Part shown: one piece after another, positions 164-61,743 of the stretch
Layout of the letters: the number at the start of each line of letters is the position of its first letter
How positions within the stretch are numbered: the first letter of the stretch is position 1
Assembly (NCBI GenBank): GCA_963734545.1
Contig: CAVTHO010000004.1
Coordinates: 672,001-736,000 of the forward strand
Direction: 5' to 3'
Origin: an uncultured Spirochaetota bacterium
GTDB taxonomy: Bacteria; Spirochaetota; Spirochaetia; SZUA-6; Fen-1364
Length of the DNA: 64,000 nucleotides
Position numbers and translations under genes: made by a program
Notes under the pieces: generated by a model
The model's database searches: none
The model's input: the letters and a program-made list of their open reading frames with translations, nothing else
Told to the model about the DNA's origin: nothing

Positions 164-285
164 GGCGCCGCCGTACCTTGCACAAATGCCACCGGATACG
201 GCGGCCACCGTACTCGGTGGCATTCGTGGCCGCGAGTGCCACCGAGTACGGTGGCCGCGGTACTCCGTGCAGTGCGGCAGATTTG
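164..285. repeat. Nested cluster of RAAT-hairpin-CGC palindromic elements
   Basis: Three GCCACCG-RRTA-CGGYGGC hairpin units (184-207 +, 201-225 -, 234-258 +) lie inside a split TGCACGG-AGTA-CCG/TGCA unit. That unit lies inside a split AAAT-CTGCCG...GGTA-CGGCGG-CGC unit on the minus strand. Confidence 0.85.
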
Positions 286-383
286 TGAGTACTAGTACTA
301 TTCCGCCGTCAACCGGTACCGCAGTAACTTCTTTTCGCGCCACGCGTGGGATACTATGGCTGCGGGGGGATGAAAGCCCGCAG

Positions 384-1730
384 ATGAACAGGATCCCTGG
401 CGTACTTGCCATGCTTCTCGCCGTCTCAGCGGCCGTCTTCGCCGCCGGGGGGCGTGAAGAGAGCGGTCAGGTCGAGCTCACCGTCGCAACGGTGAACAAC
501 CCAGACATGCTGATCATGCAGCAGCTCTCGGGTTCTTTCACGCGCAGCACGAACATCCGATTGAGTTTCGTCGTGCTTCCGGAAAATGAGCTGCGCCAGA
601 AAGTCACCGAGGACGTCGGACTCGGCTCCGGAAAGTACGACATCATGACCATCGGAACCTATGACGCTCCGTTCTGGGGGAAAAACGGGTGGATCGTTTC
701 CCTCGAGCCTTTCTTTGCCCGGCTTCCGCAGGCGGAAAGAGACGCGTACGACCGGGAGGACCTGCTCCCGTCGATCCGATCCGCGCTTTCGTACAACCAC
801 GCCCAGTTCGCCCTTCCCTTCTACGGCGAGAGCAGCATGGTCTTCTACCGAAAGGACCTGTTCGCACGCGCGGGCCTCACAATGCCGGAGGCGCCCACCT
901 GGAAGCAGATCTACGATTTCGCGATGAGACTGAAGGGCATCGAAAAAGGAACATACGGCATCGTGCTCCGGGGCCTGCCCGGGTGGGGAGAGATCCTGGC
1001 CCCCTTCAACACGGTGATCAACGCATTCGGCGGGAGATGGTTCGACGAGGAGTGGCATCCCGCGTTCGACGAGCCCCCCATGCGTGAGGCATGGGAGTTC
1101 TACAAGAAGATCCTTGCAGATGCGGGGGAGCCCAACCCCGCAACGAACGGCTATACCGAGTGCCTGGCCATCATGCAGAGCGGCAAGGCCGCCCTCTGGT
1201 ACGACGCAACGGTGACCGCGGGCGCGCTGGAAGCACCGGGTTCGAAAGTCGCCGGCAGGATCGGCTACGCGCAGGCCCCGTCCGCCCGGAAAGGCAACAA
1301 TGGCTGGCTCTGGGCGTGGGCGCTCGCCATCGGGTCCTCGTCGCGGCATCCCGACGAGGCTTTCAAGTTCCTCCGGTGGGCGACTGACAGGAGCTATATT
1401 TCCCTGGTCGGCAGCCAGGTCGGCTGGGCGCGCGTCCCCCCGGGCACGAGGGCTTCCACGTACCGCAATCCGCACTACCTTGCCGCCGCGCCTTTCGCCG
1501 GCCGGGTCCTGGCCGCAATCGAAAGCGCCGACTACGAGCACCCGACTCTCGCGCCGGTCCCCTACGTGGGCGTGCAGTACGTTTCCATCCCCGAGTTCCA
1601 GAGCCTCGGAGAAACGGTCTCCCAGCAGCTCGCGGCGTACATTGCGGGACAGAAGACCATCGATGCGGCTCTCGCCGACTCGCAGGCCGCGGCCCTTCGG
1701 GTTGCGCGCGAGGGCGGGTACCTCAAGTAG
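384..1730 (+). CDS. Sugar/polyol ABC transporter substrate-binding protein (SmoE/MtlE-like)
   Basis: Signal peptide MNRIPGVLAMLLAVSAAVFA, then LTVATVNNPDM, ENELRQKVT, PFYGESSM, WLWAWAL and PYVGVQYV motifs typical of sorbitol/mannitol-type SBPs. Confidence 0.9.
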   Translation: MNRIPGVLAMLLAVSAAVFAAGGREESGQVELTVATVNNPDMLIMQQLSGSFTRSTNIRLSFVVLPENELRQKVTEDVGLGSGKYDIMTIGTYDAPFWGKNGWIVSLEPFFARLPQAERDAYDREDLLPSIRSALSYNHAQFALPFYGESSMVFYRKDLFARAGLTMPEAPTWKQIYDFAMRLKGIEKGTYGIVLRGLPGWGEILAPFNTVINAFGGRWFDEEWHPAFDEPPMREAWEFYKKILADAGEPNPATNGYTECLAIMQSGKAALWYDATVTAGALEAPGSKVAGRIGYAQAPSARKGNNGWLWAWALAIGSSSRHPDEAFKFLRWATDRSYISLVGSQVGWARVPPGTRASTYRNPHYLAAAPFAGRVLAAIESADYEHPTLAPVPYVGVQYVSIPEFQSLGETVSQQLAAYIAGQKTIDAALADSQAAALRVAREGGYLK

Positions 1731-1746
1731 GTTCATGAGGCCGGGG

Positions 1747-2631
1747 ATGCATGATGAATTGAACCGCCCACGATCCAGGCTCCTCACATTGCCGGCAATC
1801 GTGATCGTCGCGGTCATCACGCAGGCGCCCATCCTCGTCACCCTCGGGCTCTCCCTCGTGCAGTGGATAGTCGTCCGCCCCGACATGGGGGTCACGTTCG
1901 TGGGGTTGAACAACTATATCGACATTCTCCTTTCCCGGGATTTCTACTCCGTCGTCCTGAACACGGCGCTGATCACGCTGATCTCTCTTGCCGCCTGCAC
2001 GCTCCTGGGGATCCTGTTCGGGCTCATGTTGAACCAGGACTTTCCCGGGGTGAATATCGTGCGTACGTTGATCATCTCTCCCTTCTTCGTGATGGACGCG
2101 GTTGCCGGCATCATCTGGCGCACGATGATGCTGAACTCCTCGTTCGGCTTCAATGAATCCATCGCGGCCCTGCTGGGCATAAAGCCCGTCGATTTCTTCG
2201 GCGTCTACTCGCTGCTCACCATCATCATTCTCATTGTCTGGCAGTGGACCCCGTTTTTCGTCCTGATCATGCTTGCAGGGTTCCGTAACATTTCCGAGGA
2301 GATCATGGACAGCGCCCGGGTGGACGGGGTCGGGTGGCTGCGCGAGCTGCTCTCCATCCGGCTGCCGATCATCATGAACCACATCGAGGTGGCGATCCTG
2401 CTCGGGATGATCTTCGTGCTCAAGGTGTTCGGACTCATCTTCGTCACCACCCGGGGCGGACCCGGCTATTCCTCCGCCAACCTTCCCTTTTACGCGTATC
2501 GGACGGCATTCCTCGGCTGGGATGTCGGGCACGCGGCGGCGCTCGCCGTGGTGACGGTGGCAATCACCCTCGTGGCCATTTCCGTTCTGTTCCGCTGGTT
2601 TCGACGGCGCTTCGCGGAGTCTGCCTCATGA
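1747..2631 (+). CDS. Carbohydrate ABC transporter permease (SmoF-like)
   Basis: Multiple TM segments, WQWTPF, EAA-like loop (DSARVDG) and TRGGPG. Start estimated. Confidence 0.9.
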   Translation: MHDELNRPRSRLLTLPAIVIVAVITQAPILVTLGLSLVQWIVVRPDMGVTFVGLNNYIDILLSRDFYSVVLNTALITLISLAACTLLGILFGLMLNQDFPGVNIVRTLIISPFFVMDAVAGIIWRTMMLNSSFGFNESIAALLGIKPVDFFGVYSLLTIIILIVWQWTPFFVLIMLAGFRNISEEIMDSARVDGVGWLRELLSIRLPIIMNHIEVAILLGMIFVLKVFGLIFVTTRGGPGYSSANLPFYAYRTAFLGWDVGHAAALAVVTVAITLVAISVLFRWFRRRFAESAS

Positions 2632-3452: not shown

Positions 3453-3473
3453 GGAAAACAGAAGGAGGTCGTC

Positions 3474-4277: not shown

Positions 4278-4284
4278 CACGCCC

Positions 4285-5646: not shown

Positions 5647-5713
5647 CCGCAAATGTCGCCAGGAGCGACCGCAAATGTCGCCAAACTCCGCCAGGAGCGG
5701 AAGGAACGACCGC
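5645..5713 (+). repeat. Tandem/nested AAAT-GTCGC-CAGGA-GCGAC-CGC hairpin elements
   Basis: Unit 1 is 5651-5672. Unit 2 (5673-5713) has AAAC-TCCGC-CAGGA-GCGGA (5683-5701) inserted in its loop. Confidence 0.85.
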
Positions 5714-5714
5714 A

Positions 5715-5744: not shown

Positions 5745-5750
5745 CCGCGC

Positions 5751-6797
5751 ATGAGCAAAATCGCAGTCATCCCCGGCGACGGCACGGGCCCCGAGGTTAC
5801 CCGTGAGGGAATCAAGGTCCTCACCGCGGCGTCGCGCAAGTTTTCCTTTCCGCTCGCCTTCACCAATTTCGACTGGGGCGGAGAACGGTACCTGAAGACC
5901 GGCGAGACGCTCCCGGAGGGCGGCATCGAACAGCTCCGCGGGTTCGACGCAATCTACCTCGGTGCCATCGGGCACCCGGACGTGAAGCCCGGCATTCTGG
6001 AACAGGGCATCCTCCTGCGCCTGCGTTTCGAGCTGGACCAGTACATCAACCTCCGCCCGGTGCGCCTGTACCCGAACGTGGAGACGCCGCTTGCCGGCAA
6101 GGGCCCGAAAGACATCGACTTCGTGATCGTGCGGGAAAACGTGGAGGGGCTCTACATCGGTTCGGGCGGGTTCCTCAAGAAAGGCACTCCGGACGAGGTT
6201 GCGATCCAGGAGATGGTCTACACGCGAAAGGGTGTGGAGAGATGCATCCGCTTCGCCTTCGAGTTCACGCGCAAGCGGAACAAGGGGAAGAAGCTCACGA
6301 TGTCGGGCAAGACCAACGTGCTCACCTACGTGCAGGACCTGTGGTACCGGACATTCATGGAGGTGGCAAAGGAATACCCCGACATCACCGCTGACTACGC
6401 CCACATCGACGCCACCACCATGTGGATGGTGAAGAACCCCGAGTGGTTCGACGTCATCGTGACGGAAAACATGTTCGGGGACATCATCACCGACCTCGGC
6501 GCCATGGTGCAGGGAGGCATGGGCGTGGCTGCCGGGGGGAACATCAACCCGCAGGGCGTGTCCATGTTCGAGCCCATCGGGGGCTCGGCTCCCAAGTACA
6601 CAGGCCAGAATATCATCAACCCGGTGGCGTCGATCCTTGCCGGCGCAATGATGCTGGATCAGCTCGGCCAGGCAAAGGCCGCTGAAGCGGTCGAGCGCTC
6701 GGTCATCGCCGTCATCGGGAAGATGAAGAGCATGGCGGCCGGCAAGATGGGCTTCACGACAAGCCAGGTCGGCGACATGGTTGCCGCGGGGCTCTAA
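5751..6797 (+). CDS. leuB: 3-isopropylmalate dehydrogenase (isocitrate/isopropylmalate DH family)
   Basis: [34 protein letters not shown] and FEPIGGSAP motifs. Confidence 0.85.
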
Positions 6798-6906
6798 CCG
6801 GCACCGCCCGCAGGGCGGTATCCGCGCGCGGGATTGACTGTGCTTTGCTCGCCATGGCGGTAACGGTCTCACCGGCACCGCCCGCAGGGCGGTATCCGCG
6901 CGCGGG
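6797..6906. repeat. Two exact 36-nt direct repeats with internal hairpin (74-nt period)
   Basis: ACCGGCACCGCCCGCAGGGCGGTATCCGCGCGCGGG at 6797-6832 and 6871-6906, with hairpin ACCGCCC-GCA-GGGCGGT. Located between convergent genes. Confidence 0.9.
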
Positions 6907-6950
6907 TCTGGTTGCTTTTTGCTTGCCATGCCAGTCCCGCGCACCCTTCC

Positions 6951-9310: not shown

Positions 9311-9411
9311 GCGCTCCTCCGTGAGACGGAGTGTAGCCGGAGCGCCGCACCGTGTCCACACGTCGAAGAAAATCCGCTGAGTACATCGATGGGGCGCGGG
9401 CGCGGCCCCAT

Positions 9412-10482: not shown

Positions 10483-10499
10483 ATTACGCGCCGTCCTCC

Positions 10500-10982: not shown

Positions 10983-10985
10983 TGG

Positions 10986-17775: not shown

Positions 17776-17823
17776 CCGGTCGCTCCTGGCGACATTCACG
17801 CGGTCACTCCTGGCGGCACTATC
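17776..17823 (-). repeat. Two CAGGA-loop hairpin elements between oppC and oppD
   Basis: Minus strand reads TAGT-GCCGC-CAGGA-GTGAC-CGC then GAAT-GTCGC-CAGGA-GCGAC-CGG, the same unit as at 5651. Confidence 0.75.
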
Positions 17824-21925: not shown

Positions 21926-22786
21926 ATGGCACAAGTGGACGGGGAAAAGATCCTCATCATCAAGACCGGCAGCACGCTCTCCAGGCTGAAATCCCGCAAG
22001 GGCGATTTCGAGAACTGGATCATGGCCGGCATGGGCCTGAACGCGGACGAGGTGACGATTGTCGACGTCACTGCCGGAGAACCGCTGCCCGCCAACGGGT
22101 CGCACGCGGGGGTCGTGGTGACCGGGTCCCACAGCATGGTGACGGAGCACCCCCGCTGGAGCGAGCGCGCGGCGCAGTGGCTGGCCCTCGAGATCGCGGC
22201 GGAGACACCCACCCTGGGGATCTGCTACGGGCATCAACTCCTCGGCTACGCGCTGGGGGGAACCGTGGAGGAAAATCCGCTGGGCTGGGAGCTGGGCACC
22301 GTGGAGATAAAGCTGGATGAGCAGGCGGCCCGGGACGAGCTCCTCGGCGGTCTGGACTCGATGGGGCGAAATCCGCGGACCGCCGCGATGAAAGTCCACG
22401 CCAGCCACACGCAGGCGGTGACCCGCCTGCCTCCCGGCGCGGTCCGGCTGGCTTCCAGCTCCCGGGACGCAAACCACGCGTTCCGGGTGGGGAAAACCGC
22501 ATGGGGCGTGCAATTCCATCCCGAGTTCGACTGCGACATCGTCCAGACCTACATCCAGCACTGCCGCAGGAAATTGATCGCCGACGGTCAGGACCCGGAT
22601 CAGCTCATGCGTGATTCCGAGGACACCGAATGGGGCGCGAAAATCCTGCGGCGCTTTGCGAAGGTTGCTAAGGGCGCGGCGGCCCGGAATCCGCGGGGTA
22701 CCGCGATGCGGAATCCGCGGGGTACCGCGATGCGGAATCCGCGGGGTGCCGCGATGCAGAATCCGCGGGGCTCCCCGGCAGAGTGA
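21926..22786 (+). CDS. Class I glutamine amidotransferase-like protein with repeat-derived tail
   Basis: VVTGS, LGICYGHQLL and WGVQFHPE (Cys-His-Glu triad). The last ~30 aa are (RNPRGTAM)n. Confidence 0.9.
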   Translation: MAQVDGEKILIIKTGSTLSRLKSRKGDFENWIMAGMGLNADEVTIVDVTAGEPLPANGSHAGVVVTGSHSMVTEHPRWSERAAQWLALEIAAETPTLGICYGHQLLGYALGGTVEENPLGWELGTVEIKLDEQAARDELLGGLDSMGRNPRTAAMKVHASHTQAVTRLPPGAVRLASSSRDANHAFRVGKTAWGVQFHPEFDCDIVQTYIQHCRRKLIADGQDPDQLMRDSEDTEWGAKILRRFAKVAKGAAARNPRGTAMRNPRGTAMRNPRGAAMQNPRGSPAE

Positions 22787-25201: not shown

Positions 25202-25285
25202 GGCGCCAGGGCGCAAACACATAGGCGCCAGGGCGCAAACACATAGGCGCCAGGGCGCAAACACATGGGCGCCTGGACGCGCAAA
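25202..25285. repeat. 22-nt tandem repeat GGCGCCAGGGCGCAAACACATA x3 plus a degenerate copy
   Basis: Seen directly. Each unit contains a GCGC-CAGG-GCGC hairpin. Confidence 0.92.
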
Positions 25286-25312
25286 CGCGCGGCGCATTCA
25301 GGCGTCGGTGCC

Positions 25313-25418
25313 GCGGCCACCGTATCTTGCACGGTACTCCGTGCAGTTAGGTGGCATTTGGGCGGCCACCGTATCTTGCACGGTAGTCCGTGCAGTTAGG
25401 TGGCATTTGGGCGGCCAC
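25313..25418 (-). repeat. 49-nt tandem composite element x2 (hairpin nested in hairpin)
   Basis: Minus strand AAAT-GCCACC[TAACTGCACGG-AGTA-CCGTGCAA]GATA-CGGTGGC-CGC twice. The outer part matches the unit at 184-207. Confidence 0.9.
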
Positions 25419-26453
25419 GTCTCCTGAGTCGTTTCTTGAGATTTCTATAATAGAACAGACGCGCCGCCTCGGCCGCGCGATACAAAGAATAGAGCACGGG
25501 ACGAATGGGCACGTCCCACGTGCCCCATCGCTCGACAAGGCAGTCGGAGAATCCGGTCTTGAACTGGTACAAGCCGTACATGGGGTGATCAGGGTCCGGT
25601 TGAGGAGGGACTCCATACAGATCGTAACTGGTGCACCCCGCCTCCCGCGCCATGCGGATTGCCTCCCACTGCAGCGCATAGGTGGGCATGAGGTTCCGTT
25701 TCTCCCCTGATGAGGCGCCATAGAGGTAGGCGGCGCGGCTCTTCCAGAACGCCACGATGTTGCCGGCGAGCAACTCCCCGTCGTGCCGCGCAAGAAGGAG
25801 CTTCACGGTCGGTTTCACGCCCGGGTAGCTCTGCGACGCCTGGAACAGGCCCTGGTAGTAGGCGCGCGAGTGGATGGCTATCCTGTCCCGGCTGCCCGTC
25901 TCCTGGTACAGGGCATACCATCGATCCAGGTCGTCCGGGCCTCCCTCGGAAACACTCACCCCTTTCTTGCCGGAGAGCCTCACGTTGTATCGGGTCTTGG
26001 GTTTCATGGACGCGAGGACCTGCTCCAGGGGCGGCGTGATGTCCAAGATGACGGTGTCCGGCGGCTGCATGTCTCCGGCGGCTTTCACCGCGCGCGGGCG
26101 GACGGATGCGAGTGGCGCTCCACCGGTCCTGCGCCAGGGCAGGTCGAATCGAAGGAAAAGCGTCGAGCGCGGCAGGTGGCTGCGCACGGCGCGCGCGAGC
26201 GCGGAAAGAAGCTCCCCGCGGCCTTCGACAGGATCCAGGACCGGCCCGAACGGCACATAGGCGAGGGACAGGAACCGTGCCAGGCGCCGGCTGAGAACCA
26301 GCATGCCGAATGTCGCGCCGGCCTCGAGAGTCACGCTGAACGCCTGCGCTTCCCAACCATGGGCCTGTTTGAATTGCCCCCAGAAGCCGGACTGGAGCAT
26401 CTCGTCATTATCGTCGAGGAATGAGAGCGGAACCGGGCGGATGGAAACCTGCT
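25396..26453 (-). CDS. FemAB/FemX-family peptidoglycan interpeptide-bridge aminoacyltransferase
   Basis: LQSGFWG.FK, YVPFGP, MKPKTRYNVR, YLYGAS, LQWEAI, YDLYG and GLYQFK.GF. Start codon unclear; a possible 1-nt loss in AGGAG-cgac-A(T)G-CAG is near 26453. Confidence 0.88.
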
Positions 26454-26477
26454 GTCGCTCCTGGCGACGTTTTTCGA

Positions 26478-30921: not shown

Positions 30922-32643
30922 TCAGGCGCCCGGGGATTCCTCGGGCGCCTGTTTTTTGCCCTCCACTGCCGCGCGCCTTGTTGTCGCTGTCAGGGCGATC
31001 CTGTCGAGCCCCGCGCGGAACCCCTCGAACGCCGGGTCTCCGGCGGCAAACGCGCGCAGGCTCTCGAGCACTTCCGAGAATAGAGCGGCGTATTTCCGAT
31101 GGGCAAGCTTGTTGACCAGCCGCAGGGTCTCCTTCATCAGCTTGTCCCTCTCTCGCGCGTCCCTTTCTTTCCTGGCTATCCCCACGATCACGTCGATCTC
31201 TTCTCTCACGTCGCGCACCAGGCAGCCGCGCAGGTCAGCGGCAAACTGTTCGGCACCCTTCGGTGATCCGAACCGCGGGGGCTCGGCATCCGCGGTGAAC
31301 CTCCATTGGTGGCGCATCGTGAGCCGAACGGCCGTCCCGGGACAGGGCTCGACGACGATCGCATCCTGCTCGGTGCGGAAGGCCCTGCGCACACGCGCCG
31401 GGTCGAAGGCCTGGCCCATGAGCCTGGCGATCCGCACGTCGAGCAGCAGCTCGCTGACCAGCCTCGTCCCCTGCGGCCGCCGTGCGCGGGCAATCCCGGT
31501 TCGGTCCACAACGAGGGCCAGCTCCTGGTTGCGGGTCGTACGGCCAAGGCTCTGCTTTCCGCCGGGATACTTCACGTAGCCGGTCGCGCTTATGGACAGG
31601 CTGCCCGTCCCGGCAAGAAGCTCACACAACTCCTCCAAGCCGATCAACCCCTCGTCGCTGTAGCTCACTACCAGCCAGCGGCAGTCCGCTGCCTGCACGA
31701 CTTCCTTCATGGCGTCAAATGCCGTGGAGGGATAGCAGAACGCTGAGCGCGTCCTGGTCCAGTCCGCGCGGATACCGGCCTTGCTCCGAAGCCGTCCGTC
31801 GGGACCGCGCGCCTCGCTCACCGGCGGCTTGTCCCAGAGTGCAATGGAGTTGAGCATGAAGTAGTTGCTGCCGTACTGGTGGACCGCATAGGGAGGATCC
31901 AGGTAGCAGATGTCGGCGCGGCAACCGGAAAGGAACTCCCGCGCGTCCATGCAGGCCACCGTGGAACGCGCCGGCGCGTCGATCAGCACAGGCGGCCGGA
32001 GAACAATTTCCGCCATGATGCGCTTGAGCGCGTCCCGGCTGTGCCCGCCAAAGCCCCTGTGGCAGGCCTTGAAGACACCGGATGTGTTTGTGTGCGTGGC
32101 GGCCTCATACAGGAGGGGAGCCAGAAGCATCATCTTCTGCCGGAAGGCAGGTTCCTCCGCCAGCGTGCCGGGGTACATCTCCTCGATCCGTTCGCGCACC
32201 GCGTCGATCACCCGCGCGTTCTCCCGGGTATAGAAAAGCCTTTCCGTCCGCCAGTCCGCCTCTTCCGTGCTGCGCGGCGCGTAGTGCCTGCTGATATAGG
32301 CCTTCTCCTCCCGGGGCGGGGGCAGGCTGTTCAGCTCCGCCAGGACCGGCCCGAGGCCGCCCTTCTCCCTGAACAGGACGTCCGTATCCGCCTGTGCGTT
32401 TCCGAGGTGGCAGGAGTTGATCACGTATGAATAGTGCTCCAGGTCGTTCGCGGCAACCGCGAAGCCCATCAGGCGCGCCAACCGGGAGACGGCACCGCTT
32501 CCCGCGAACGGGTCGAGGAATGTCGCGCGCGAGGGCTCCGGCACGAGCTTCGAGAAGACTCCGTGCAGGAAAGGCAGGAGCGCCCGCTTGTTTCCTATGT
32601 AGGCAATGAGCTGCTCGGTGAGGAATGGATGACGGAGATCCAT
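30922..32643 (-). CDS. Adenine-specific DNA methyltransferase (alpha class, D12-like) with C-terminal extension
   Basis: YIGNKR, motif I DPFAGSG, motif IV YLDPPY and SYS.EG. About 190 extra C-terminal residues. Confidence 0.88.
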   Translation of the reverse strand: MDLRHPFLTEQLIAYIGNKRALLPFLHGVFSKLVPEPSRATFLDPFAGSGAVSRLARLMGFAVAANDLEHYSYVINSCHLGNAQADTDVLFREKGGLGPVLAELNSLPPPREEKAYISRHYAPRSTEEADWRTERLFYTRENARVIDAVRERIEEMYPGTLAEEPAFRQKMMLLAPLLYEAATHTNTSGVFKACHRGFGGHSRDALKRIMAEIVLRPPVLIDAPARSTVACMDAREFLSGCRADICYLDPPYAVHQYGSNYFMLNSIALWDKPPVSEARGPDGRLRSKAGIRADWTRTRSAFCYPSTAFDAMKEVVQAADCRWLVVSYSDEGLIGLEELCELLAGTGSLSISATGYVKYPGGKQSLGRTTRNQELALVVDRTGIARARRPQGTRLVSELLLDVRIARLMGQAFDPARVRRAFRTEQDAIVVEPCPGTAVRLTMRHQWRFTADAEPPRFGSPKGAEQFAADLRGCLVRDVREEIDVIVGIARKERDARERDKLMKETLRLVNKLAHRKYAALFSEVLESLRAFAAGDPAFEGFRAGLDRIALTATTRRAAVEGKKQAPEESPGA

Positions 32644-33144: not shown

Positions 33145-34669
33145 ATGAGCTCGAGGTCGTTGCGGGAATTGTGCGCGGCGCTCACCGTGCGGGAGACCCG
33201 GGGAGACATGGGCCGGACGGTGTGCGGCATCGCCTACGATTCCCGGGAGGTGAAGCCCGGCTTTCTCTTCGTGGCGATGGACGGCCTGCACACGGACGGC
33301 CACAGCTTCATCCCTGATGCGCTGGCGAGGGGCGCGGCCGCCCTGGTACACGCCCAGCCGCTCCTCGAAACGCCCGCGGGCGTCACCTGCATCCGGCTGG
33401 ACAACCCGCGCGCGGCGCTCTCTCCCCTGGCCGCCGCCTTCTACGGTCACCCCTCCCGGTCCATCCGCGTAGTCGGCGTCACCGGCACCGACGGCAAGAG
33501 CTCCACCGTATGGTTCATCACCCAGCTTCTCGGGTTCCTCGGCAGAAGAGTCGGATTTCTCTCCACCGTCTCCTTCCAGACCTCCGAAACGATCGTGAAG
33601 AATCCCTTCCGTCAATCCACGCCGGAGGCAACCGAGATCCATGGGATGCTGAGAGAAATGGTGGACCTCGGCAAGGAGTTCGCCGTTGTGGAGACCACCT
33701 CGCACGGGCTGTCACGGCGGATGAACCGGCTGGCGGATGTGCGGTTCGACGCGGGCGTGCTGACCAACGTCACGCACGAGCACCTGGAGTTTCATGGCTC
33801 GTTCGAGCAGTACCGGTCGGACAAGGCGAACCTCTTTCGCGCCCTCACTTCCGCGCCGGACAAAACCGTGGAATGCCCGCGTTTCGGCGTGGTGAACGCG
33901 GACGATCCCAGCGCGCCGTACTTCCGCCAGGCAGCCCAGGTTCCCGTTTTTTCCTATGGCCTCAGGGAGCCCGCTGACCTCGGGGCGCGCGCAATACGGG
34001 CGGATCTGTCCGGCACGACTTTCCTCATGACAGGCGAGGGGGGGGAAGCTGAGACGCGCGTGGCAATTCCCGGGACCCTTCTGGGTGGAAAACTCCCTGG
34101 CCGCGTGCCTGACGGTCGCGCGGCTGCTGGAAATCGACCCCCTCGCCCTGGCCCCTCACCTTCAGGAACTGCGGGGCGTGCAGGGGCGCATGGACTACGT
34201 CGTGCTCGGCCAGCAGTTTGCCGTCATTGTCGATTATGCGCATACCCCCGGAGCGTTCGAGAAGCTCCTCCCCTGGGTGCGCGCCCACACCACGGGAAAG
34301 ACAATCGTCGTGTTCGGCTCGGCAGGAGAGCGCGACAGCGCGAAGCGCCCCCTGCAGGGCAGGGTCGCCTCCGAGAATTGCGACACGCTCGTGATCACGG
34401 ACGAGGATCCGCGGGGCGAGGACAGCATGACCATCATCGAGCAGATCGCCGCCGGCTGCGTCGGCAAGACCCGGGGCAGGGATCTTTTCCTTGTTCCGGA
34501 CAGGCGGGAGGCGATCCTGCTGGCCCTGAGGCGCGCAGCGCCGGGGGACACGGTGATGCTGCTGGGCAAGGGTCACGAAGGGAGCATCATCGGCCCGGAG
34601 GGCGCCGCTGCCTGGGACGAGAGATCGGAGGCGGAGGCCGGCCTGCGGATCCTGGGGTACGGCCGCTGA
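33145..34669 (+). CDS. murE: UDP-MurNAc-tripeptide ligase (frameshift near 34083)
   Basis: YDSR, GVTGTDGKSS, STPE, E.TSH, TNVT.EHLEFH, then in the next frame GRM, VDYAHTP, FGSAGERD..KR, DEDPR and GKGHE. Confidence 0.93.
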
Positions 34670-37448
34670 TGCCGGTCCTTCTTGCGCTGATCCTGATTCT
34701 CTGTCCCCGGCCCGCCGGAAGCGAAACACTTCACGTCGGCCTCACGATGGCCGCCGAGCTCAGGGGCTCTGCCCCGGAGATCGGCGCTCTCCAGTCAGGG
34801 GTAGGGGCTCTTTTCGCGAGGGAGTATGGAAGGTTCGCCGACATTTCGTTCGACGCGGCGCCGGGTGCCGGCGCGGCGGGAACCCCGGGGGCGGCGCCGG
34901 GTGCCGGCGCGGCGGGGGCCTCCGGGGCGGCACCGCCTGCCCCGGCGGCGGGCTCCACGGCGCGTGTCATCCTGTCACGGCAGGCCGGCCGCATCGACGT
35001 CTCAACCGATCTTGCGCGAGGAGGCGTGACGCGCTCGTTGTCTTCCTCGGTCCCTGCGGGCGCACTTGCGAGCCTCGTTTCCACGATCACGGGAGACGTC
35101 GCATTCCTCTTCTTCTCCGCGCAGGATTTCTCGGCCTTTCCTCTCGCTGCTCCCCCTTCTCTGCGCGCGACATTGCAGACAGAAACGCTCCGTATCCTCA
35201 CGGGATGGGACTCGACGGACCTGGAGCCCATCGCGCTTGCCGAATCGGAAGGGCAGGTCACCATATGCTTCCCGCACCGCTATCTCACGCTTGACCCGCT
35301 GTTCCGGATCACCGCTGACACCATCCGGGATCTCAATGCCCAAACGGGCAGCGCAGGGGAACCGCTCCAGCTCTCGGGGATTGCCGCGGGACGCCGTGAC
35401 GAGCTTCTCCTCCTTTCAGAACGGGAAGGCGTGATCGCGCGCATCAATCCTTTGCTGGGAACCCGACAGCAGGTATCTGCGCCGGGGCTCTCCGGAGTCG
35501 GCGGCCGGATGCTCGACCCGGATACCCTCGCGGAGCTCTCGAACGCCGGCGGCGCGACGCACGTCGTGCTCCATGGGGCATCACCTTCCGGCCGGCGGAC
35601 GCTGTCGGTGCCTGCTTCCTACGCCTCGGCCCTTTCCGTGGATCCGGAAGGCAACCTCTGGGTGTGGGATGCCGGAGAGCGCCGCGTCCGCGTCATGACG
35701 GCGGGCGGCCGTGAAGTCTTTTCGATCAGGCCGATGATCAGTGCCTCGCTGATGCAGCTCCCCCAGCAGCTCGAGGTTTTCGAGGACGGCAGCTTCCTCC
35801 TGGGCGGCTCGGCAGAGGTCTGGAAGTTCGACAACGCGGGGATTCCGGCATGGCGGCTGTCCCGTATTCCCGGCCGGCCGGGCGAAAAGCTCCCTCCCTC
35901 ATTCGCGCTCGTCGCGCACGGCGCGGACGGGTCCTTCACGCTCCTTGACGCGCCATCGCGCAGGCTGATGACATTCGGACCCGTCACCGGGCGGGATGAT
36001 GAGCTTACCTCCCTGCTTGCGCGACTGGACGGACGCAGGCGGCAGGATCTGCAAAACGCCGGCGAGCTGGCCCGCCGGGCCGGCCTTTCACTGATGGCAT
36101 GGCAGTTTGGCGATCTGCTGGCGCGCAGAGGGGGATCAGAGAACGACAGGGAGGCGGCGCGAAGAGAAGTCCTCAGGGAAAAGTGCGTCTTGTACGCCGC
36201 GCTTGCCGACTCGATGGCGCGCGCCCAGCTCATTCAGCGCGCAGACGGGGCGTACCTGCGTGCCGCGGAGGCGGCGAGAGAGCTCACGGCCGCGGCACCG
36301 GATGACGACGCTGCGGCGCGGCTGGGAGAAGCCATGGTCTCGAAGAGGCAGGCAGCGCGCGCCGGTCTCACCCGGGCGTCCGATGTGCGCATCGTTTCCG
36401 CCGCGGCAGGCGTGGCGCACGAGGGAGGGTGCGCCCTTTCCCTCACCGTCATGCTGCGGGTGAGGAACAATGCGGCGTCGAACCTGACGAGGCTCCGCGT
36501 GCACCTCGGTCTCCCGTCCATCACGGAGACGCAGGCGCTCGCTGCCGTCGATACGCTGTTCCCCGGGGACGAACGCGACATGGAGTTCCCGCTTCGACTC
36601 GACGGTCCCCTGCCGCCGGCCGCTCTCGAGCCCGGGGGCATTCCCGCGGTATTGCTCATTACCTACGAGCGCGGCGAGGAAGGTTTTTCAGTGCCGGATG
36701 CACTCACCGTTCGCGTGATGGATGTCGCAGCCGGAGAGCCTCTCGCCAATTCCCTTGCGTGCCGCGCCGAGACGGGGGATCAGCTCGTGGCAGGGCTCGC
36801 GGATGATCTTCTGGCCGCCGCCGGCCCGGTGCGCGGCGCAGCGGACCCGGTGGCCTCGTTGGCCGGGATACTCGATTCTCTGGGCGGGCTGCGGCGCCAG
36901 GCCGCGTCCGGTCGAGCCGGCGTGGATCAAGCGGCCCAACCGGACCCCGGGCGCGCGGAAGGCGGCGTCCGCCGGGCCCTGCGCGCGCTCTCACCGGATG
37001 AGACCGACTGGACCCTGCTGTCCCTGTCCGTGATCGCCGGCCTGGGGCTGCCTGCCGGGCTCATCTCCTGGCCGGATCGCGTGTGTGCCCTGGTGGATAC
37101 CGGTATCCCCCTGTCCGGCGTCATTTCGTCCGTCCCGGGCATCGAACGATACTCCGGCGTTCTGCGCGCGCTCTCGCGCGAAGAGCGGCTCTGCGTCCCG
37201 CTCAGCGGCCGGCTTTCCCCCGACGCCTCTTCCGCGGCCGCGTGGTCGGTCGTGGATGCGCTCGAGATCTGCCGGGACAAGGCTGTCCGCAACGCCTCCA
37301 TCGCCTGGCTGGACACCGCGGTGACGCGGCAAGGGCCCGCGCTCCCGTGCCGGTCCCCTTTCCCTTTGTTCCTCCCTGCCTGCCGGTGCGGCCATCCGGC
37401 GAGGCTTTGCGCGCAGAGATCGTCAAGGCCCTGGAGCAACAGAAATGA
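34669..37448 (+). CDS. Large exported hypothetical protein: propeller-like region, Ig-like domain, degenerate transglutaminase-like domain (frameshift near 37350)
   Basis: Signal peptide MPVLLALILILCP, NHL-like ALSVDPEGNLWVWD...RVRV, and Ig-like LRVRNN...L.PGDER. Overlaps the murE stop and the ddl start. Domain calls are by eye. Confidence 0.7.
34855..34926 (+). repeat. 36-nt tandem duplication encoding an Ala/Pro/Gly linker
   Basis: AAPGAGAAGTPG / AAPGAGAAGASG. Confidence 0.8.
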
Positions 37449-38518
37449 ACATCTGCATACTGTATGGGGGCAGGTCCGGCGAGCACGAGATTTCCCTCAG
37501 GTCCGCCGGTTCCGTGGTGAAGAACCTCGATCCTTCCCGATACGCCGTTGTCGCCATCGGCATCGACAAGGCAGGGCGCTGGCACCTGCAGGAGGAGCTC
37601 CCTCTCCGGGAAGTGCCCGGACAAGGCGCCATCCTGTCGATCGTCTCCGGGTCGACGCCGGTCTCCATCGTGCCTTCGGACGGCATTCACACTCCCTCGG
37701 GAAAGCTGGCCATCGATTGCGTCTTCCCCGTGCTCCACGGCTCCTTCGGTGAGGATGGCACGGTGCAGGGGCTTCTGGAGATCGCGGGCATCCCGTATGT
37801 GGGGGCCGGCGTGCCGGGGAGCGCGATTTCGATGGACAAGGAAACCGCAAAGCGCCTCTGGAGGGACGCGGGTCTGCCCATCGTGGATTTCCAGGCCGTG
37901 GACCGTTCGAGCTCCGCAAAAGACCTGCGGGAGGCGGCGGCGCGCATCGGCTGGCCGGTTTTCGTAAAGCCCTGTTCGGCGGGCTCCTCGCTGGGCGCCT
38001 CACGGGTGAATGACGCGCGCGAGCTGGATGCGGCGGTCGCGCAGGCGCTGCGCTACGACACGAGAGCGCTCCTGGAACGCTGCGTCGACGCCCGGGAGAT
38101 CGAGTGCGCCGTCATCGGCAATTCCCGTCCCCGGGCGTTTCCTCCCGGAGAAATCGTTCCGTCCCGCGCGCACGGTTTCTATGACTATGATGCGAAGTAC
38201 ACCGACAAGGACGGCGCGTCACTGGAGGCAGCGGCGCAGGTGGATGAGGCGGCCCGGAGGCGCATCATGCGCGCCGCGGAGTCAGCCTACGCGGCGGTGC
38301 GATGCGAAGGCATGGCACGGGTGGATTTCTTCCTGGAGCGCCGCAGCGGCGAGCTCTTCGTGAACGAGATCAACACGATCCCCGGCTTCACGAGCATCAG
38401 CATGTTCCCGCGCATGTGCGAGGCGTCCGGTCTCCCCTATGCCGAGCTCCTCGACACTCTGATCGAGCTGGCCCTGGCGCGCGACACCGAGAAGAAAACG
38501 GTGCGCTACGAGAAGTAG
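37445..38518 (+). CDS. ddl: D-alanine--D-alanine ligase
   Basis: GGRSGEHEISL, FPVLHG..GEDG, MDK, FVKP...GSS.G, FYDYDAKY and NEINTIPGFT. Confidence 0.97.
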   Translation: MNICILYGGRSGEHEISLRSAGSVVKNLDPSRYAVVAIGIDKAGRWHLQEELPLREVPGQGAILSIVSGSTPVSIVPSDGIHTPSGKLAIDCVFPVLHGSFGEDGTVQGLLEIAGIPYVGAGVPGSAISMDKETAKRLWRDAGLPIVDFQAVDRSSSAKDLREAAARIGWPVFVKPCSAGSSLGASRVNDARELDAAVAQALRYDTRALLERCVDAREIECAVIGNSRPRAFPPGEIVPSRAHGFYDYDAKYTDKDGASLEAAAQVDEAARRRIMRAAESAYAAVRCEGMARVDFFLERRSGELFVNEINTIPGFTSISMFPRMCEASGLPYAELLDTLIELALARDTEKKTVRYEK

Positions 38519-38606
38519 GCGGCACGGGCTCCCAGGCGCAAACGGCTTGACCGGTCAGGGCTTTTATGACAATACGGTGAGGAGACATTCAATAAGGAGA
38601 CCGCAC

Positions 38607-38867
38607 ATGGGGTGGAACACCGCTTTTCTGGTTCTGGGCATTATCGCGGGAATTCTCGGTATCTGGAATCTGGCCCGGCAGCGCAACATCTTTCTCTCCC
38701 TGACGGGCATCCTGTGGTTCCTGGTCGTCCTGTTCAAGCTTCCCCAGCTGCAGAGCATCTACGACTACAAGCTGGTTTCGGGCATTCCCGGAGTCGGTGA
38801 CCTGGTTCTGTTTCTGCTCATCCCGATATTCATCATCTTCGCATTCTTCACGAGCTACAGGCGGTAG
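38607..38867 (+). CDS. Small membrane protein (three TM segments), unknown function
   Basis: TAAGGAG SD before ATG, hydrophobic segments, and an upstream TTGACC box. Confidence 0.75.
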   Translation: MGWNTAFLVLGIIAGILGIWNLARQRNIFLSLTGILWFLVVLFKLPQLQSIYDYKLVSGIPGVGDLVLFLLIPIFIIFAFFTSYRR

Positions 38868-40029
38868 AAGCCGCACAAGGCTTTGACATTCTCTCCAGCG
38901 CCCAGCGCGCGGTCCGGCGGAGCATCGGTTCACTGCTTGCAGTGAACCGCTCCACGTCGGTCCGCAAACCGGGATCGCGGCTGTTGCCGGCCGCGATAAG
39001 GGCGTTTCGCATCAGCGCGTCTCCCGACACCCAGGACATCCCCATGGCCGTGCCTCGAAACCACTCTTTCAACCCGGAGGCCGGGTCCAGCGAGAGTATT
39101 TTTCGAATTGACACGCTCGGCCCCAGCTCCCCGGCAGCGAAGGGCGCCTCCTCGTTCAGGTTCCGATTGTGCGGGCAGGCTGCCTGGCACTCCTGGCAGC
39201 CGTAGAGCCGGGTCCCCCACAACTCCATGACATGCGGCTCGAGCGGCACGGCCGATCCGGCAAGACCCTGGAGACAGCGGCCAGGGGAGACGAGCCCCGG
39301 CTCTTCGATGGCCCCAACGGGGCACGCAGACATGCAACGGGTGCAGGAACCGCAGAGATCACCCCGCGGCTGGGCAGGCGCAGCCGAGGGGCGAAGCTCC
39401 ACGGAGGGCAGGGGGATGACCGCGCCTCCAATGACGAACATCGAGCCGAGGCCCGGTACGAGGGCGAGCCCGTTCCTGCCGTATGCGGCAAGGCCCGAGG
39501 CAACGAGGAGGGGCTTTTCCGGGATGCGCGAATTGGAAAAAAGGCGGATGGAGGCGCGGGGAATGCCGCGCTCCTCTTCGAGCCGGCGCGCGACCCCGCG
39601 CAGCATTCCCATGGCCATACGATAGTAATTTGCGCGGGCGAATGGCGCGATCAACGCATGTGGATCGCCCGGGCGGGAAAGATCGTCGGGCTCATGCCGC
39701 GCGCAGGAGAGGCAGCAGACGAGCACGGAAGATGTTTCCGACCAGCGCGCCACGGTACTCCGTGGATTTGGCGCCACGGTACTCCGTGGATTTGGCGCCA
39801 CGGTACGGGGTATTCCCCGAACGGGTATTCCCGTACTCCGTGGATTTGGCTCAGGTTCGAGAATCCACTCCCACTCCAGACCCTCGAACGCCCCCTGGTC
39901 CAGAAACCCGCGCGTGCGCAGCGCGCGCGCCCGGCGCGCCAGGGGAATGATAAGGCGGGGATCGACCCACCCCGCTCGATGAAAACCCGCCTCCCGCGCC
40001 AGGGCGAGGACGGAGTCGCCGGGGGACAT
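38848..40029 (-). CDS. queG: Epoxyqueuosine reductase-like 4Fe-4S protein with in-frame repeat insertion
   Basis: IAPFAR.NYY, IPEK, G..GRN, CGSCTRCMSACPVGA, LYGCQECQAACP and RNALIAAGN. Confidence 0.8.
   Translation of the reverse strand: MSPGDSVLALAREAGFHRAGWVDPRLIIPLARRARALRTRGFLDQGAFEGLEWEWILEPEPNPRSTGIPVRGIPRTVAPNPRSTVAPNPRSTVARWSETSSVLVCCLSCARHEPDDLSRPGDPHALIAPFARANYYRMAMGMLRGVARRLEEERGIPRASIRLFSNSRIPEKPLLVASGLAAYGRNGLALVPGLGSMFVIGGAVIPLPSVELRPSAAPAQPRGDLCGSCTRCMSACPVGAIEEPGLVSPGRCLQGLAGSAVPLEPHVMELWGTRLYGCQECQAACPHNRNLNEEAPFAAGELGPSVSIRKILSLDPASGLKEWFRGTAMGMSWVSGDALMRNALIAAGNSRDPGLRTDVERFTASSEPMLRRTARWALERMSKPCAASTACSS
39747..39849 (-). repeat. Three 24-nt AAAT-CCACGG-AGTA-CCGTGG-CGC units inside queG, one with a 30-nt nested insert
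   Basis: Encodes PNPRST[GIPVRGIPRT]VA-PNPRSTVA-PNPRSTVA. The insert is CGGG-AATA-CCCG TT CGGGG-AATA-CCCCG TA. Confidence 0.93.
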
Positions 40030-51411: not shown

Positions 51412-51422
51412 CTGCACGGACT

Positions 51423-57819: not shown

Positions 57820-57850
57820 AAAAAAAGCCCGCGGTCGGAAGGCCGCGGGC
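57820..57850 (-). terminator. Rho-independent terminator
   Basis: Minus strand GCCCGCGG-ccttccga-CCGCGGGC followed by T7, downstream of the lipoprotein gene. Confidence 0.85.
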
Positions 57851-57886
57851 GAGCACGTATCAGAATATGGACCTGCTCTCCTGGCT

Positions 57887-59526: not shown

Positions 59527-61574
59527 GACGACACCTCCTTCTCCGCTGAGGCGGCCCGGCCCTTGCCGCCGCTCCCCGCGTCCAGGCTGGCCAGACGCTC
59601 CGCCGCTTCTGGATCTGCAGTCTTGAGCTGTACCAGTGCGGTCTGGACCGCGTTCGTGTCCCCCAGCTCGTAGCCGGCCATGGCGATTCCCTGCAGCGCG
59701 AACGAGTTGTTCGACGACCTCTTCAAGGCGCGCGTGTAGTAGTCCAGCGCGCCCTGGTTGTCGCCTCTCATGTAGGCGATATTGCCGAGGTTGACCAGGG
59801 CCGAGGGGACTTCCCCGTTCGTGGTCACGATCTTCTCGAACTGCTGGCGGGCTTCGTCGTACCTGCCGAACCTGGCATAGAGGACGCCAAGCCTGTTCAG
59901 AAGCCTGCTGTCTGTCTTCTGCAGCCTCAGATCATCCTGCAGCTTCGAGATGCGCGGCTGGAACGCGGCGGTCCAGAAGGCCTGCAGCTCGGCTGCGTAC
60001 GCGGCATAGACGCGCTCGGAGTCCGGCGGGCTGATGTTGACCCTTATAATATCTCCCGTGTTTGCCGGAGAGAATTTCTCCCAGGCATCACGGACAGGAA
60101 TGAAGGCGGCGTTCTGGCCGGCAGAAGCCGAGCGCCATTCCTGCGCGCCTGTCTGCCACGCCCTGAGAAATCCGTCCCGGACCCGGGTGATCTCCACGGG
60201 AATCCAGGTCTCGTTTTCCCTGGTGATCAGGTCCGCCGGGTTCACGAAGGTGGCGGCTGCGGTGCGCGGATCCAGGTCGAGATTGAACGCCACGTAGATG
60301 TGACCGGGAACCGTGATGAACGCGGTCTCGATGCCGGCGGACTCGAGGAGGGCCGCGTACAGGATCGTAAGATCGTCACAGTCACCCGCCCGGGTCTCCA
60401 GGGTCTGGGCAGGGAATTGCAGGTAGTCCACCGCTTCCTTGTTCTCCACCTTGGAGGCAAAAGTCTTCGGGTCGGGTATATAAGCGACACCCTGGATTCT
60501 CATGGCGGTGAAGAGCGCCATTGCGGCCCGGAATGTGACGTTGATCGCCGCGGTCCCCCTGGACCGGGCGTCGGGCACGGCCCGCGCAGCGAAGCTGCGG
60601 ATGTTCATGTCATTCGACGTAATGAACGCGGCGGCCTTGCAGGTGTCATCCCACGTCATGCCGTTCCTGTTGTGCACGGTCACGGTCACCGGATAGCTGC
60701 CCGTCACGTCGTTTCCGAAGTACTTGTAGGCGACGCTGATCTCGCCCGCCACCTTCGTGGCCTCTGTGACCCCGAAGATGTTGTCCCGAACAAGGGCGAA
60801 TACGTCGAACGTCTTTTCCTCACCTCGCGCGAGCTCCTTGCAGGTCCAGGTAACCTTGGGCTGGTCCATGAACTGCTTGACGAAGAAGCTCACTTTCAGG
60901 TCCTGGATCGTCCCCGTGCTGGTGTTCTTGATGGTCGTTGATCCTGCCGGGTTTTTGTCGTAATAGCTGTAAAACAGCGGGAAAATCGGCCGAAGGGCGG
61001 GCTCGACCTTGAGGTTCGCGGCGCCCCCTCCCGCGCCGATATGATAGCGCACGCCGAAGCTCACCCCGATGCCCTGGTACAAGGGATCCGTCGGCGTAAA
61101 GTTGTACCTGTAGGATGCACCGAGGGCGAGGGTGAGAGAAGGGTTCAGCAGGTAGCTGACGTCAGCCAGGCCCCCTATGTAGGGGTTGAATACAGTCCCC
61201 TCCGCGACCATACCGGCATATTCACCCCCGCAAGCGGCCAGCCGGAGTCCCAGACGCGGAATTGGGAAGTACTGGACACCGAGCTCCGCCCCGAGCGACA
61301 GGAGTGTGACGGATTTGGTAGAAGAGTTGATCGGCACCAGGTCCGCCCCCAGCGCGAGTCCCGAATAGAGAAACTGCGCAAAGGACGGCGTGTATTCGCC
61401 CTTCACCGACACCCCGCCGCCTATCGAATAATAGGGCGTGCCGTCCGACAATACAGGCCCCAGCGGGATGTTGACGGTCGGATACGCTGTCAGGGTGAAA
61501 TCACTGGTGACCTGCGCCCAGCCCAGGGCGCCCACAAGAACCAGGCCGAGAGCGACGACGCATTTCTGATTCAT
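59511..61574 (-). CDS. Outer-membrane beta-barrel + Ig-like + transglutaminase-like + TPR protein
   Basis: Signal peptide, about eight amphipathic strands ending FGVRYHIG, DYLQFP.QTL...GDCDD...GHIY...WIPVE, and three TPRs (NRLG..Y...G, NLGNI.Y..G). Confidence 0.8.
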   Translation of the reverse strand: MNQKCVVALGLVLVGALGWAQVTSDFTLTAYPTVNIPLGPVLSDGTPYYSIGGGVSVKGEYTPSFAQFLYSGLALGADLVPINSSTKSVTLLSLGAELGVQYFPIPRLGLRLAACGGEYAGMVAEGTVFNPYIGGLADVSYLLNPSLTLALGASYRYNFTPTDPLYQGIGVSFGVRYHIGAGGGAANLKVEPALRPIFPLFYSYYDKNPAGSTTIKNTSTGTIQDLKVSFFVKQFMDQPKVTWTCKELARGEEKTFDVFALVRDNIFGVTEATKVAGEISVAYKYFGNDVTGSYPVTVTVHNRNGMTWDDTCKAAAFITSNDMNIRSFAARAVPDARSRGTAAINVTFRAAMALFTAMRIQGVAYIPDPKTFASKVENKEAVDYLQFPAQTLETRAGDCDDLTILYAALLESAGIETAFITVPGHIYVAFNLDLDPRTAAATFVNPADLITRENETWIPVEITRVRDGFLRAWQTGAQEWRSASAGQNAAFIPVRDAWEKFSPANTGDIIRVNISPPDSERVYAAYAAELQAFWTAAFQPRISKLQDDLRLQKTDSRLLNRLGVLYARFGRYDEARQQFEKIVTTNGEVPSALVNLGNIAYMRGDNQGALDYYTRALKRSSNNSFALQGIAMAGYELGDTNAVQTALVQLKTADPEAAERLASLDAGSGGKGRAASAEKEVSSWNEE

Positions 61575-61695
61575 GGGACCTTCCCCTTTTAATCAACATT
61601 CCTGCATGCCCGCACATCTTATGGAGTCACTCATAATTATACACCCCGTGGCAAGTTTTTCTCAACCCGCGCCTGCGCCGAGTTTGGCGGCGCAC

Positions 61696-61743
61696 GAATC
61701 CGCCGAATACGGCGGCGCAGGAATCCCCCGAATACGGCGGCGC
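61696..61743 (+). repeat. Two GAAT-CCSCCG-AATA-CGGCGG-CGC hairpin units (25-nt period)
   Basis: Units at 61696 and 61721, preceded by a degenerate copy. Confidence 0.85.

Follow-up and report, generated by a model that had tools for sequence, protein, structure and literature searches.

A RAAT-tagged family of very small REP-like hairpins in one genus of uncultured Spirochaetia

How does a hairpin of two dozen nucleotides (nt) come to stand at many places in one bacterial genome, with its flanks kept and its stem sequence changed? The question is raised by a 64,000-nt stretch of DNA from an uncultured Spirochaetota bacterium (positions 672,001 to 736,000 of contig CAVTHO010000004.1, here C4:672001-736000; hereafter the window), in which a sequence-only reading had noted dispersed hairpins with a 5' RAAT, a short GC stem and a 3' CGC or TGC. 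We followed these hairpin units through the source assembly, G000, a metagenome-assembled genome (MAG) of 5.14 Mb in 10 contigs with 63% G+C and 89% completeness, and through its relatives. We lean towards regarding them as mobile but non-autonomous DNA elements of very small size, forming a family specific to this lineage and akin to the repetitive extragenic palindromes (REPs).

Abundance, anatomy and pairing of the units

A strict descriptor (RAAT, a perfect stem of 5-7 bp, a loop of 4-5 nt and YGC) matched 173 times at 117 loci in the whole of G000, against 12, 14, 16, 7 and 17 matches in five dinucleotide-preserving shuffles; the comparison with shuffled sequence (173 versus 7-17) thus confirmed the excess on which the proposed family depended. 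Family totals were taken from a loop-anchored scan that tolerates one deviation, which yielded 257 A units, defined by the loop NNTA and perfect in 118 cases, and 45 B units, defined by CNGGA and perfect in 20, together 302 units at 197 loci, while the shuffles held 3, 4, 3, 2 and 3 units in total. As a control, the reversed pattern gave no match in any of 41 genomes. Among 723 perfect NNTA-loop hairpins, about half carried A-A-T at positions -9 to -7 and C-G past the stem, with R, A, A and T enriched at -10 to -7, and a covariance model built from 34 diverse units matched G000 at least 137 times.

A unit spans 23-26 nt and consists of one linker base, the RAAT tag, a GC stem of 5-7 bp whose complementary arms enclose a 4-nt loop with TA at its end, and a CGC tail; it has no stop codon in any reading frame. 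The commonest form is GAAT-CCGCGG-AGTA-CCGCGG-CGC, and further perfectly paired stems include CCGCCG, CCACGG, CCACCG, GCGCGG, GCACGG, GCCACGG, GTCACGG, GTCACCG and CACACGG; about 20 of the 50 stem combinations seen are perfectly paired. B units, which read RAAT-GYCGC-CAGGA-GCGRC-CGC and have their flanks in common with A units, are likely a separate sub-family. An alternative phase, in which the element would be a tiny TA-duplicating transposable element of the miniature inverted-repeat type (MITE), with the form TA-arm-CGC..RAAT-arm-NN-TA, was rejected, as 133 of the 197 loci consist of a single RAAT-hairpin-CGC with one TA. The remaining loci hold two units (39), three (15), four (5), five (4) or six (1). 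Head-to-tail arrays dominate, orientation being mixed at just 4 of the 197 loci; their period is 23-27 nt, with linkers of 1-5 nt between CGC and RAAT, and units and linkers are near-identical inside one array and different between arrays. Inverted doublets occur too, and one cluster in the window (184-290) folds into a single long hairpin.

Units also nest in the loops of other units, giving composites that fold as multi-branch structures. A recurrent inner module, two small hairpins joined by GAA, was found in 33 copies, mostly inside A-type outer stems and in either orientation. Its second hairpin is shared by a further eight-copy family in G000, GGACGRCG-TTCG/TACT-CGYC-GAA-CGGG-TACT-CCCG-TA, which is often enclosed by CCATGG-like arms and would fold as a three-way junction (C5:555300, C7:675371, C7:285791, C7:285708, C8:55516, C8:716578, C9:251184 and C9:252404). 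The idea that GTAC, which recurs at hairpin junctions, marks a restriction site was dropped, the genome holding 13,370 GTAC where 14,512 are expected.

Covariation was assessed with a pattern that makes no pairing demand, everything being fixed except two stem pairs; it returned 94 units at 61 independent loci of G000. Stem pair 5 was G-C at 45 of these loci, C-G at 15 and unpaired at one, and stem pair 3 was G-C at 47, A-T at nine and unpaired at five. Covariance-model matches in other MAGs comprised 75 units at 50 loci, whose stem diversity is understated because the loci had been chosen by a CCGCGG pattern: pair 10-22 was GC in 66 units and AU in six, pair 12-20 was GC in 67, CG in four and UA in one, neither was unpaired in any unit, and none of 500 shuffles reached the covariation score. 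The stems therefore co-vary in both sets, as the sequence-only reading had claimed. This shows that pairing is kept, whether by selection, by selective propagation or by template switching.

All relatives found with a window protein were uncultured Spirochaetia or Spirochaetota MAGs. Of 20 other species of the genus, 12 contained the exact degenerate pattern, in 1-96 copies, and none of 20 genomes of other genera did; the covariance model, whose copy counts are lower bounds, gave matches in 18 of those 20 species and one weak match in 71 genomes that represent 26 further genera of the order. In a scan across the genomes of 185,579 species, all of the 92 matches listed were in MAGs with Spirochaet- names. 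Stem preference differs by species, G005 having no exact-pattern match and at least 40 model matches; G002 holds at least 52 units. In a single-locus tree covering 15 of the 20 other species, most of those with none or one exact-pattern copy fall in one clade, and abundance is therefore largely clade-structured. Judged from these scans, the family is confined to a single genus of the uncultured Spirochaetia.

Gain, loss and position of units

Synteny was compared with G014 (about 89% DNA identity) and G002 (about 84%), in which several arrays are N-masked. Because these relatives differ by 11-16% in DNA, most insertions and deletions cannot be polarised, the exceptions being events in rRNA paralogues and multi-species empty sites. 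The array at 39747-39848 is exactly three units long; its site is exactly empty in G014 (L002) and in L004, a wetland-metagenome contig skips exactly the same 102 nt, and G002 carries an array there, partly N-masked. The ends of the array leave at most a 2-nt GC ambiguity, without target duplication. At 22685, where neither relative has the array, G014 shows GAAT and CCGCGGGG 6 nt apart. The arrays at 25202-25418 are missing from the relatives or cut down to a simple hairpin, the G000 loci C6:84041 and C7:112725 are empty in G014, and at C6:86426, inside a gene, copy number is 2, 3 or many across G000 and its relatives. Empty orthologous sites in relatives, which the sequence-only reading had named as a check, thus exist at 39747, 22685, C6:84041 and C7:112725.

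Turnover is seen in the other genomes as well. G014 has private insertions at window positions 38520 (125 nt, deeply nested), 38868 and 39370 (in frame, +18 nt), and a B insertion at about 10490, present in G014 (one unit) and G002 (two units), is missing from the window; it lies at a gene start and duplicates the ATG, and the stop codon of the resulting 9-codon upstream open reading frame (ORF) overlaps the true start. In G014 the same element is found at two of the window's four B loci and at none of its simple A loci or arrays.

Three paralogous 23S-3'/5S regions of G000 (C8:2901-3990, C8:42381-43330 and C4:7041-7990) record further insertions. The first comprises a 23S fragment truncated at its 5' end and a 5S gene, with an IS110-family gene on either side, the two being near-identical (within C8:195-5390); outside gaps it is identical to the two other copies at 564 of 579 positions (97.4%), and it has five private insertions. 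That at C8:3591-3616 is a 26-nt insert made of one linker base plus GAAT-GCCACGG-AGTA-CCGTGGC-CGC, without flank duplication, in the apical loop of a large-subunit rRNA helix (8 model positions versus 34 nt). Of the others, one of 54 nt lies in a further hairpin loop, one of 55 nt has the inner-module motif at its end, one of 11 nt is in the loop of a spacer hairpin, and one of 62 nt, which includes a B unit, is in the 5S gene. Each of the three 23S-5S spacers keeps one A unit with a 7-bp stem. Altogether, these events show that insertion can add one complete unit and nothing else, and that hairpin loops are hit at least in structured DNA.

With respect to genes, 118 of the 197 loci are intergenic, though intergenic DNA makes up 12.6% of G000. 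The orientation of A units relative to neighbouring genes is random (27, 22, 23 and 26 in the four configurations), which points to a DNA-level element; GC skew was too weak over the 10 contigs for replication strands to be assigned. A loci are shared out among tandem, convergent and divergent spacers about as the lengths of these spacers would predict, with 23 of the 98 intergenic A loci between divergent genes. Their median distance is 19 nt to gene 3' ends versus 89 nt to 5' ends, and in tandem gene contexts 33 lie nearer the 3' end and 17 nearer the 5' end.

A further 79 loci overlap ORF calls, 39 of them well inside, and at 26 of these 39 coding potential is positive within 100 codons on both sides. 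In-frame copies, in either orientation, encode peptide repeats, for example RAAVPGGF, which four different proteins contain, and PNPRDTAT and APRYSADS, each three times, a unit of 24 nt being eight codons. Such copies are tolerated, and arrays lengthen ORF calls, since every frame of the unit is free of stop codons.

The preferred reading, its driver and its rivals

The conserved tag, loop TA and tail, combined with free but compensated stems, suggest recognition as a folded single strand, and discrete insertion without duplication, fast lineage-specific turnover and random orientation fit a non-autonomous element of folded single-stranded DNA. The comparisons show whole units arising at new sites without target-site duplication, multiplying locally into head-to-tail arrays with array-specific linkers, most simply by slippage or unequal exchange, and landing in loops of existing hairpins to give nested, cloverleaf-like composites. 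Units survive mainly near gene 3' ends, and within genes only where the insert keeps frame. We infer that a DNA enzyme acting in trans and specific for structure would recognise the element in its folded, single-stranded form and that propagation would be limited to copies that fold. A further version, which we put forward tentatively, is a hairpin transposition independent of the REP-associated tyrosine transposase (RAYT), in which single-stranded units of 24-26 nt (RAAT, TA, CGC) would be copied, with no duplication of the target, by an enzyme family or a pathway of the host that has so far not been tied to REP-like elements; loops would be favoured, giving recursive composites, and ORFs in frame and decaying rRNA genes would be colonised.

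The search for a moving enzyme weighs against mobility, as do several further observations gathered here. The sequence-only reading had proposed a REP-like family with a different foot, spread by an enzyme encoded outside the window; the REP likeness stands, with a tag that is not GT[AG]G, and the proposed driver found no support. A RAYT or REPtron was not found in the assemblies searched, a negative limited by the incompleteness of the MAGs and by the usual loss of insertion sequence (IS) copies from short-read bins; the driver is not a canonical RAYT in these assemblies, and an enzyme encoded elsewhere is possible. Where a RAYT or IS200 Y1 gene, or a reverse transcriptase, flanked by units had been suggested, G000 has one ordinary IS200, with end hairpins unrelated to the units, and no reverse transcriptase was found in it. 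Its one match to the Y1 HUH family (PF01797; C4:159630-159989) belongs to this single IS200 of lower G+C (C4:158130-161489, L001), which has no flanking units and whose hairpins are CCACCGCC-TAT-GGCGGTGG on the left and AATCCACCGCC-TCT-GGCGGTGGATT on the right; the same IS type is multi-copy in G017. The likeness of an IS200 right-end hairpin (AAATCCACCGCC...) to the units was judged coincidental, since AAT lies within its stem and its tail differs. Across the genus, Y1 matches occur in 12 of 21 genomes and represent two IS200 types, and at nine IS200 loci in eight genomes the end hairpins (also GTCTTC-AGAC-GAAGAC) are unlike the units and none is flanked by them. Nor does Y1 presence track the repeat: G002, G010 and G005 are unit-rich without a Y1 match, whereas G015 and G008 have Y1 and 0-1 units.

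Other enzymes fared no better. In five genomes, reverse transcriptases (RVT_1) were found only in G014 and G010 (none in G000, G002 or G005), and the TnpB zinc ribbon PF07282 in none; IS110-family genes were present in four of the five, the single junction inspected by eye lacked a unit, and to our knowledge IS110-family enzymes do not move such units. Ten proteins encoded between inverted units included none that is transposase-like, all being ordinary metabolic proteins or of no known function. No conserved target or cleavage motif was found at the junctions of four or five clean events, and four ordinary empty sites were no better folded than shuffles (z = +1.43, 0.00, -1.10 and -0.09). On these folds a loop or palindrome centre was rejected as a general target, and loop targeting holds only for nested copies and the rRNA fragment, because the ordinary empty sites have no significant hairpin. 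The material itself calls for caution, as all genomes compared are MAGs (G000 89% and G002 96% complete) and gene positions come from a crude, purpose-written codon-usage ORF caller (4,773 calls, 87% coding).

A last adverse observation leads to the main rival. Copies of the 3' arm plus CGC stand within 16 nt upstream of 50 of 162 A loci, against 0.9 expected, and tag plus 5' arm stands downstream of only 15 of 162. The 50 upstream copies comprise 22 degenerate full units, about 10 composites and about 18 true half units, and half units count against mobility because simple cut-and-paste of whole units would not predict them. They are accounted for if there is no dedicated enzyme: intra-strand template switching would yield compensated stems in one step, slippage would build the arrays, and gene conversion or microhomology copying would seed the loci. 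This account also agrees with the array-specific linkers and copy-number variation, with the half-unit sequence that alone is found at 61686 in a relative, with the 6-nt spacing of GAAT and CCGCGGGG in G014, and with the failure of any RAYT-like driver to turn up. However, template switching would not recreate the same RAAT, loop TA and CGC in about 19 species and at some 200 sites unrelated to one another; neither the rRNA insert of 26 nt nor that of 102 nt at 39747 has a similar sequence at its empty site; and the family is confined to one genus although replication and repair enzymes are universal. We consider an enzyme-free origin unlikely.

That the units are functional RNA or regulatory motifs under selection (stabilisers of mRNA 3' ends, terminators or sites bound by a protein that acts on mRNA or DNA) instead of mobile DNA is improbable. 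The proximity of A loci to gene 3' ends and the A unit retained in each of the three rRNA spacers would suit such a role, as would the B units, which are mostly sense-oriented between co-directional genes (10 versus 2), often within about 20 nt past the upstream stop, with a loop CAGGA that reads AGGAG with the next G, and some of which are conserved in three species; such behaviour of B units, with the duplicated ATG at 10490, may point to a part played as RNA, or at the least to a side effect on translation. A B unit taken by cmscan as a 5S rRNA 3' end was dismissed, the likeness of about 9 nt being judged chance. Against selection for function stand the lack of orientation bias among A units, the share of them between divergent genes, the 26 loci lying in frame within coding sequence in both orientations, and a turnover so rapid that at about 89% DNA identity G014 has the same element at no simple A locus or array of the window, a simple hairpin at 25313 and a half-unit sequence at 61686 being all that is left. 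Moreover, no T-runs follow the units in the contexts examined, where CGC and GC-rich sequence stand instead (no formal terminator scan was made), so that A units show neither the T-run nor the orientation with the upstream gene of intrinsic terminators, and Rfam 15 families at gathering score gave no match in the 64-kb window.

It is very improbable that the units are miniature IS200 derivatives moved in trans by the IS200 transposases of the genus, for although Y1 HUH enzymes, a family that acts on hairpins with a 5' guide tetranucleotide, occur in 12 of 21 genomes and IS copies are often lost from MAGs, the end hairpins of both IS200 types are unlike the units and unflanked by them, and the presence of Y1 matches does not follow that of units.

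Loci of the window, neighbouring repeats and known systems

The hairpin loci of the window are listed in Table 1; Pfam domains were assigned for 20 proteins, 10 of them encoded in the window. Every locus cited in the sequence-only reading bears hairpins, and the shared architecture it described holds, with amendments. The locus at 25313-25418, given as a simple GCCACCG-RRTA-CGGTGGC unit, is a composite; the three GTCGC-CAGGA loci are all present, one of them with degenerate flanks; and the supposed variant at 22369, which has the loop ACCG and lies inside a GATase gene, does not fit the descriptor. Tandem arrays, nesting in loops, in-frame copies within genes and the likely separate B sub-family go beyond what had been described.

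Table 1. Hairpin loci of the 64,000-nt window and the corresponding sites in two relatives
Position	Strand	Units	Context	Relatives
184-290		Cluster of four A units, stem GCCACCG, alternating orientation; REPIN-doublet-like long hairpin, fold -46.2 kcal/mol, z = -8.35; perfect or near-perfect units 184-208(+), 201-225(-), 234-258(+)	Intergenic
5651-5713	+	Two B units (AAAT GTCGC CAGGA GCGAC CGC), first 5651-5672, second with nested B-like hairpin	Begins 5 nt past stop codon of FGGY kinase gene (Pfam)	G002: single unit
9370-9392	+	Degenerate A-unit remnant (AAAT CCGCTG AGTA ...)		G002: array of composite units
17776-17823	-	Two B units, one at 17776-17797	54-nt spacer of two co-directional ABC-transporter genes (Pfam)	Common to relatives, copy number differs: window 2, G014 1, G002 2
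22685-22770	+	3.6 x 24-nt A array (GAAT CCGCGG GGTA CCGCGA TGC); perfect or near-perfect units 22687-22709, 22711-22733	Between convergent GATase and histidine-kinase genes; both ORFs run through the array	Absent from G014 and G002
25313-25418	-	49-nt composite x 2.2; outer GCCACC/GGTGGC, inner TGCACGG-AGTA-CCGTGCA in loop		G014: simple hairpin only; G002: none
26451-26472	-	B unit, flanks degenerate (AAAC/AGC)	5' part of FemAB-family ORF	G014: 1 unit; G002: 3 units or unit-like copies
39747-39848	-	Three-unit A array (AAAT CCACGG AGTA CCGTGG CGC, one linker base before each): 39747-39769(-), 39771-39793(-) and 39795-39848, the last with two small hairpins nested in its loop	102 nt = 34 codons, in frame in ORF 38848-40029(-) with Fer4_16 domain	See text
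61686-61743	+	Half unit (GGCGGCGC), then two A units (GAAT CCGCCG AATA CGGCGG CGC), 61696-61718 and 61721-61743	Intergenic, upstream of TetR gene	G014: half-unit sequence only

Other repeats lie nearby. A different 22-nt tandem repeat at 25202-25286 (3.8 copies of GGCGCCAGGGCGCAAACACATA, with a small GCGC-CAGG-GCGC hairpin) adjoins the composite array and is absent from G014 and G002. Between convergent genes at 6793-6930 there is a 74-nt tandem repeat (1.9 copies), in place of which G002 has an unrelated 35-nt repeat and G014 a 5.2-kb insertion. An in-frame, GC-rich 36-nt repeat at 34855-34952, within a 1527-aa ORF (33169-37752), is of a length unlike that in both relatives. Finally, the G002 orthologue of 30931-30967 has four 24-nt units (GGCCGCTGAAATCGGGCGGCCTGT) just before a terminator-like hairpin, a further type of local hairpin array, and the window has the terminator-like hairpin only.

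The spread of REP-like hairpins without a RAYT is an open question, raised for 'untagged' families in the conclusions of one report (PMC3733652). The genus described here is a tractable case, with a tiny, sharply defined unit, evidence for recent insertions with exact boundaries, nesting, in-frame copies in about 26 genes, and about 20 sequenced sister species, of which some have no detected copy and others up to 96 or more that fit the exact pattern. Arrays account for many intergenic length differences between the species compared, and they are likely to break or confuse short-read assembly and annotation of these MAGs.

How, then, does the family compare with known systems? REPs are defined by GT[AG]G 0-2 nt from the foot of a hairpin, and Y1 enzymes act on a single-stranded hairpin with a 5' guide tetranucleotide both at REPs and at IS200/IS605 ends (PMC6006769, PMC8266576). 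The spirochaete units resemble the REP, BIME and REPIN elements of Proteobacteria, as described there, in having a short, GC-rich hairpin that stands between a conserved tetranucleotide on its 5' side and a brief 3' tail (PMC8266576, PMC6006769, PMC3733652), in hundreds of copies that are mostly intergenic near gene 3' ends, in lineage-specific classes with free but paired stems, and in the occurrence of singletons, head-to-tail arrays and inverted doublets. They are short GC-rich palindromes in high copy and mainly extragenic (302 units; 118 of 197 loci), as REPs are; neither a GT[AG]G tag nor a single-copy RAYT flanked by its REPs was seen in these incomplete MAGs. Unlike REPs, they carry a RAAT tag, a conserved loop TA and a smaller unit (stem 5-7 bp, 23-26 nt), head-to-tail arrays dominate, units nest in loops, and no RAYT or REPtron was found. 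We class the family with elements that work like REPs, though not with REPtrons, since two defining features, the tag and the associated gene, are lacking.

Tags other than GTAG have precedents. REP-like hairpins with a CGTC tag were reported in five phyla including Spirochaetes, some families having 3-nt tails and members within genes (Di Nocera et al. 2013), and hairpins with a CnGA foot stand beside class 3 Y1 genes (Quentin et al. 2018). The present family shares with them a REP-like hairpin with a tag other than GTAG, but on neither strand is its tag CGTC or CnGA, since RAAT and YGC flank the hairpin and read GCR and ATTY on the complement, and no class 3-type Y1 gene was seen. A limited search of the literature gave no mention of a RAAT-tagged family, and published survey lists may include spirochaete families. 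Like MITEs, the units are small and non-autonomous, have an inverted-repeat structure and differ in presence among relatives; unlike them, they are an order of magnitude smaller, make no target-site duplication at clean events, and have no parent IS with matching ends among those found. They are likewise not identical to the subterminal hairpins of the resident IS200 elements at the nine loci.

Palindromic repeats in frame in coding genes, tolerated as extra peptide segments, are familiar from the Rickettsia palindromic elements, which are about 100-150 bp long, belong to an alpha-proteobacterial genus and are not known to form tandem arrays; the spirochaete units, by contrast, are 24 nt (8 codons), tandem, and form short peptide repeats. 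Altogether, the kind of element is known and its RAAT-tagged form appears to be new; unusual in it are, besides the lack of a detected RAYT, its tiny size, dominant arrays, recursive nesting and in-frame peptide repeats.

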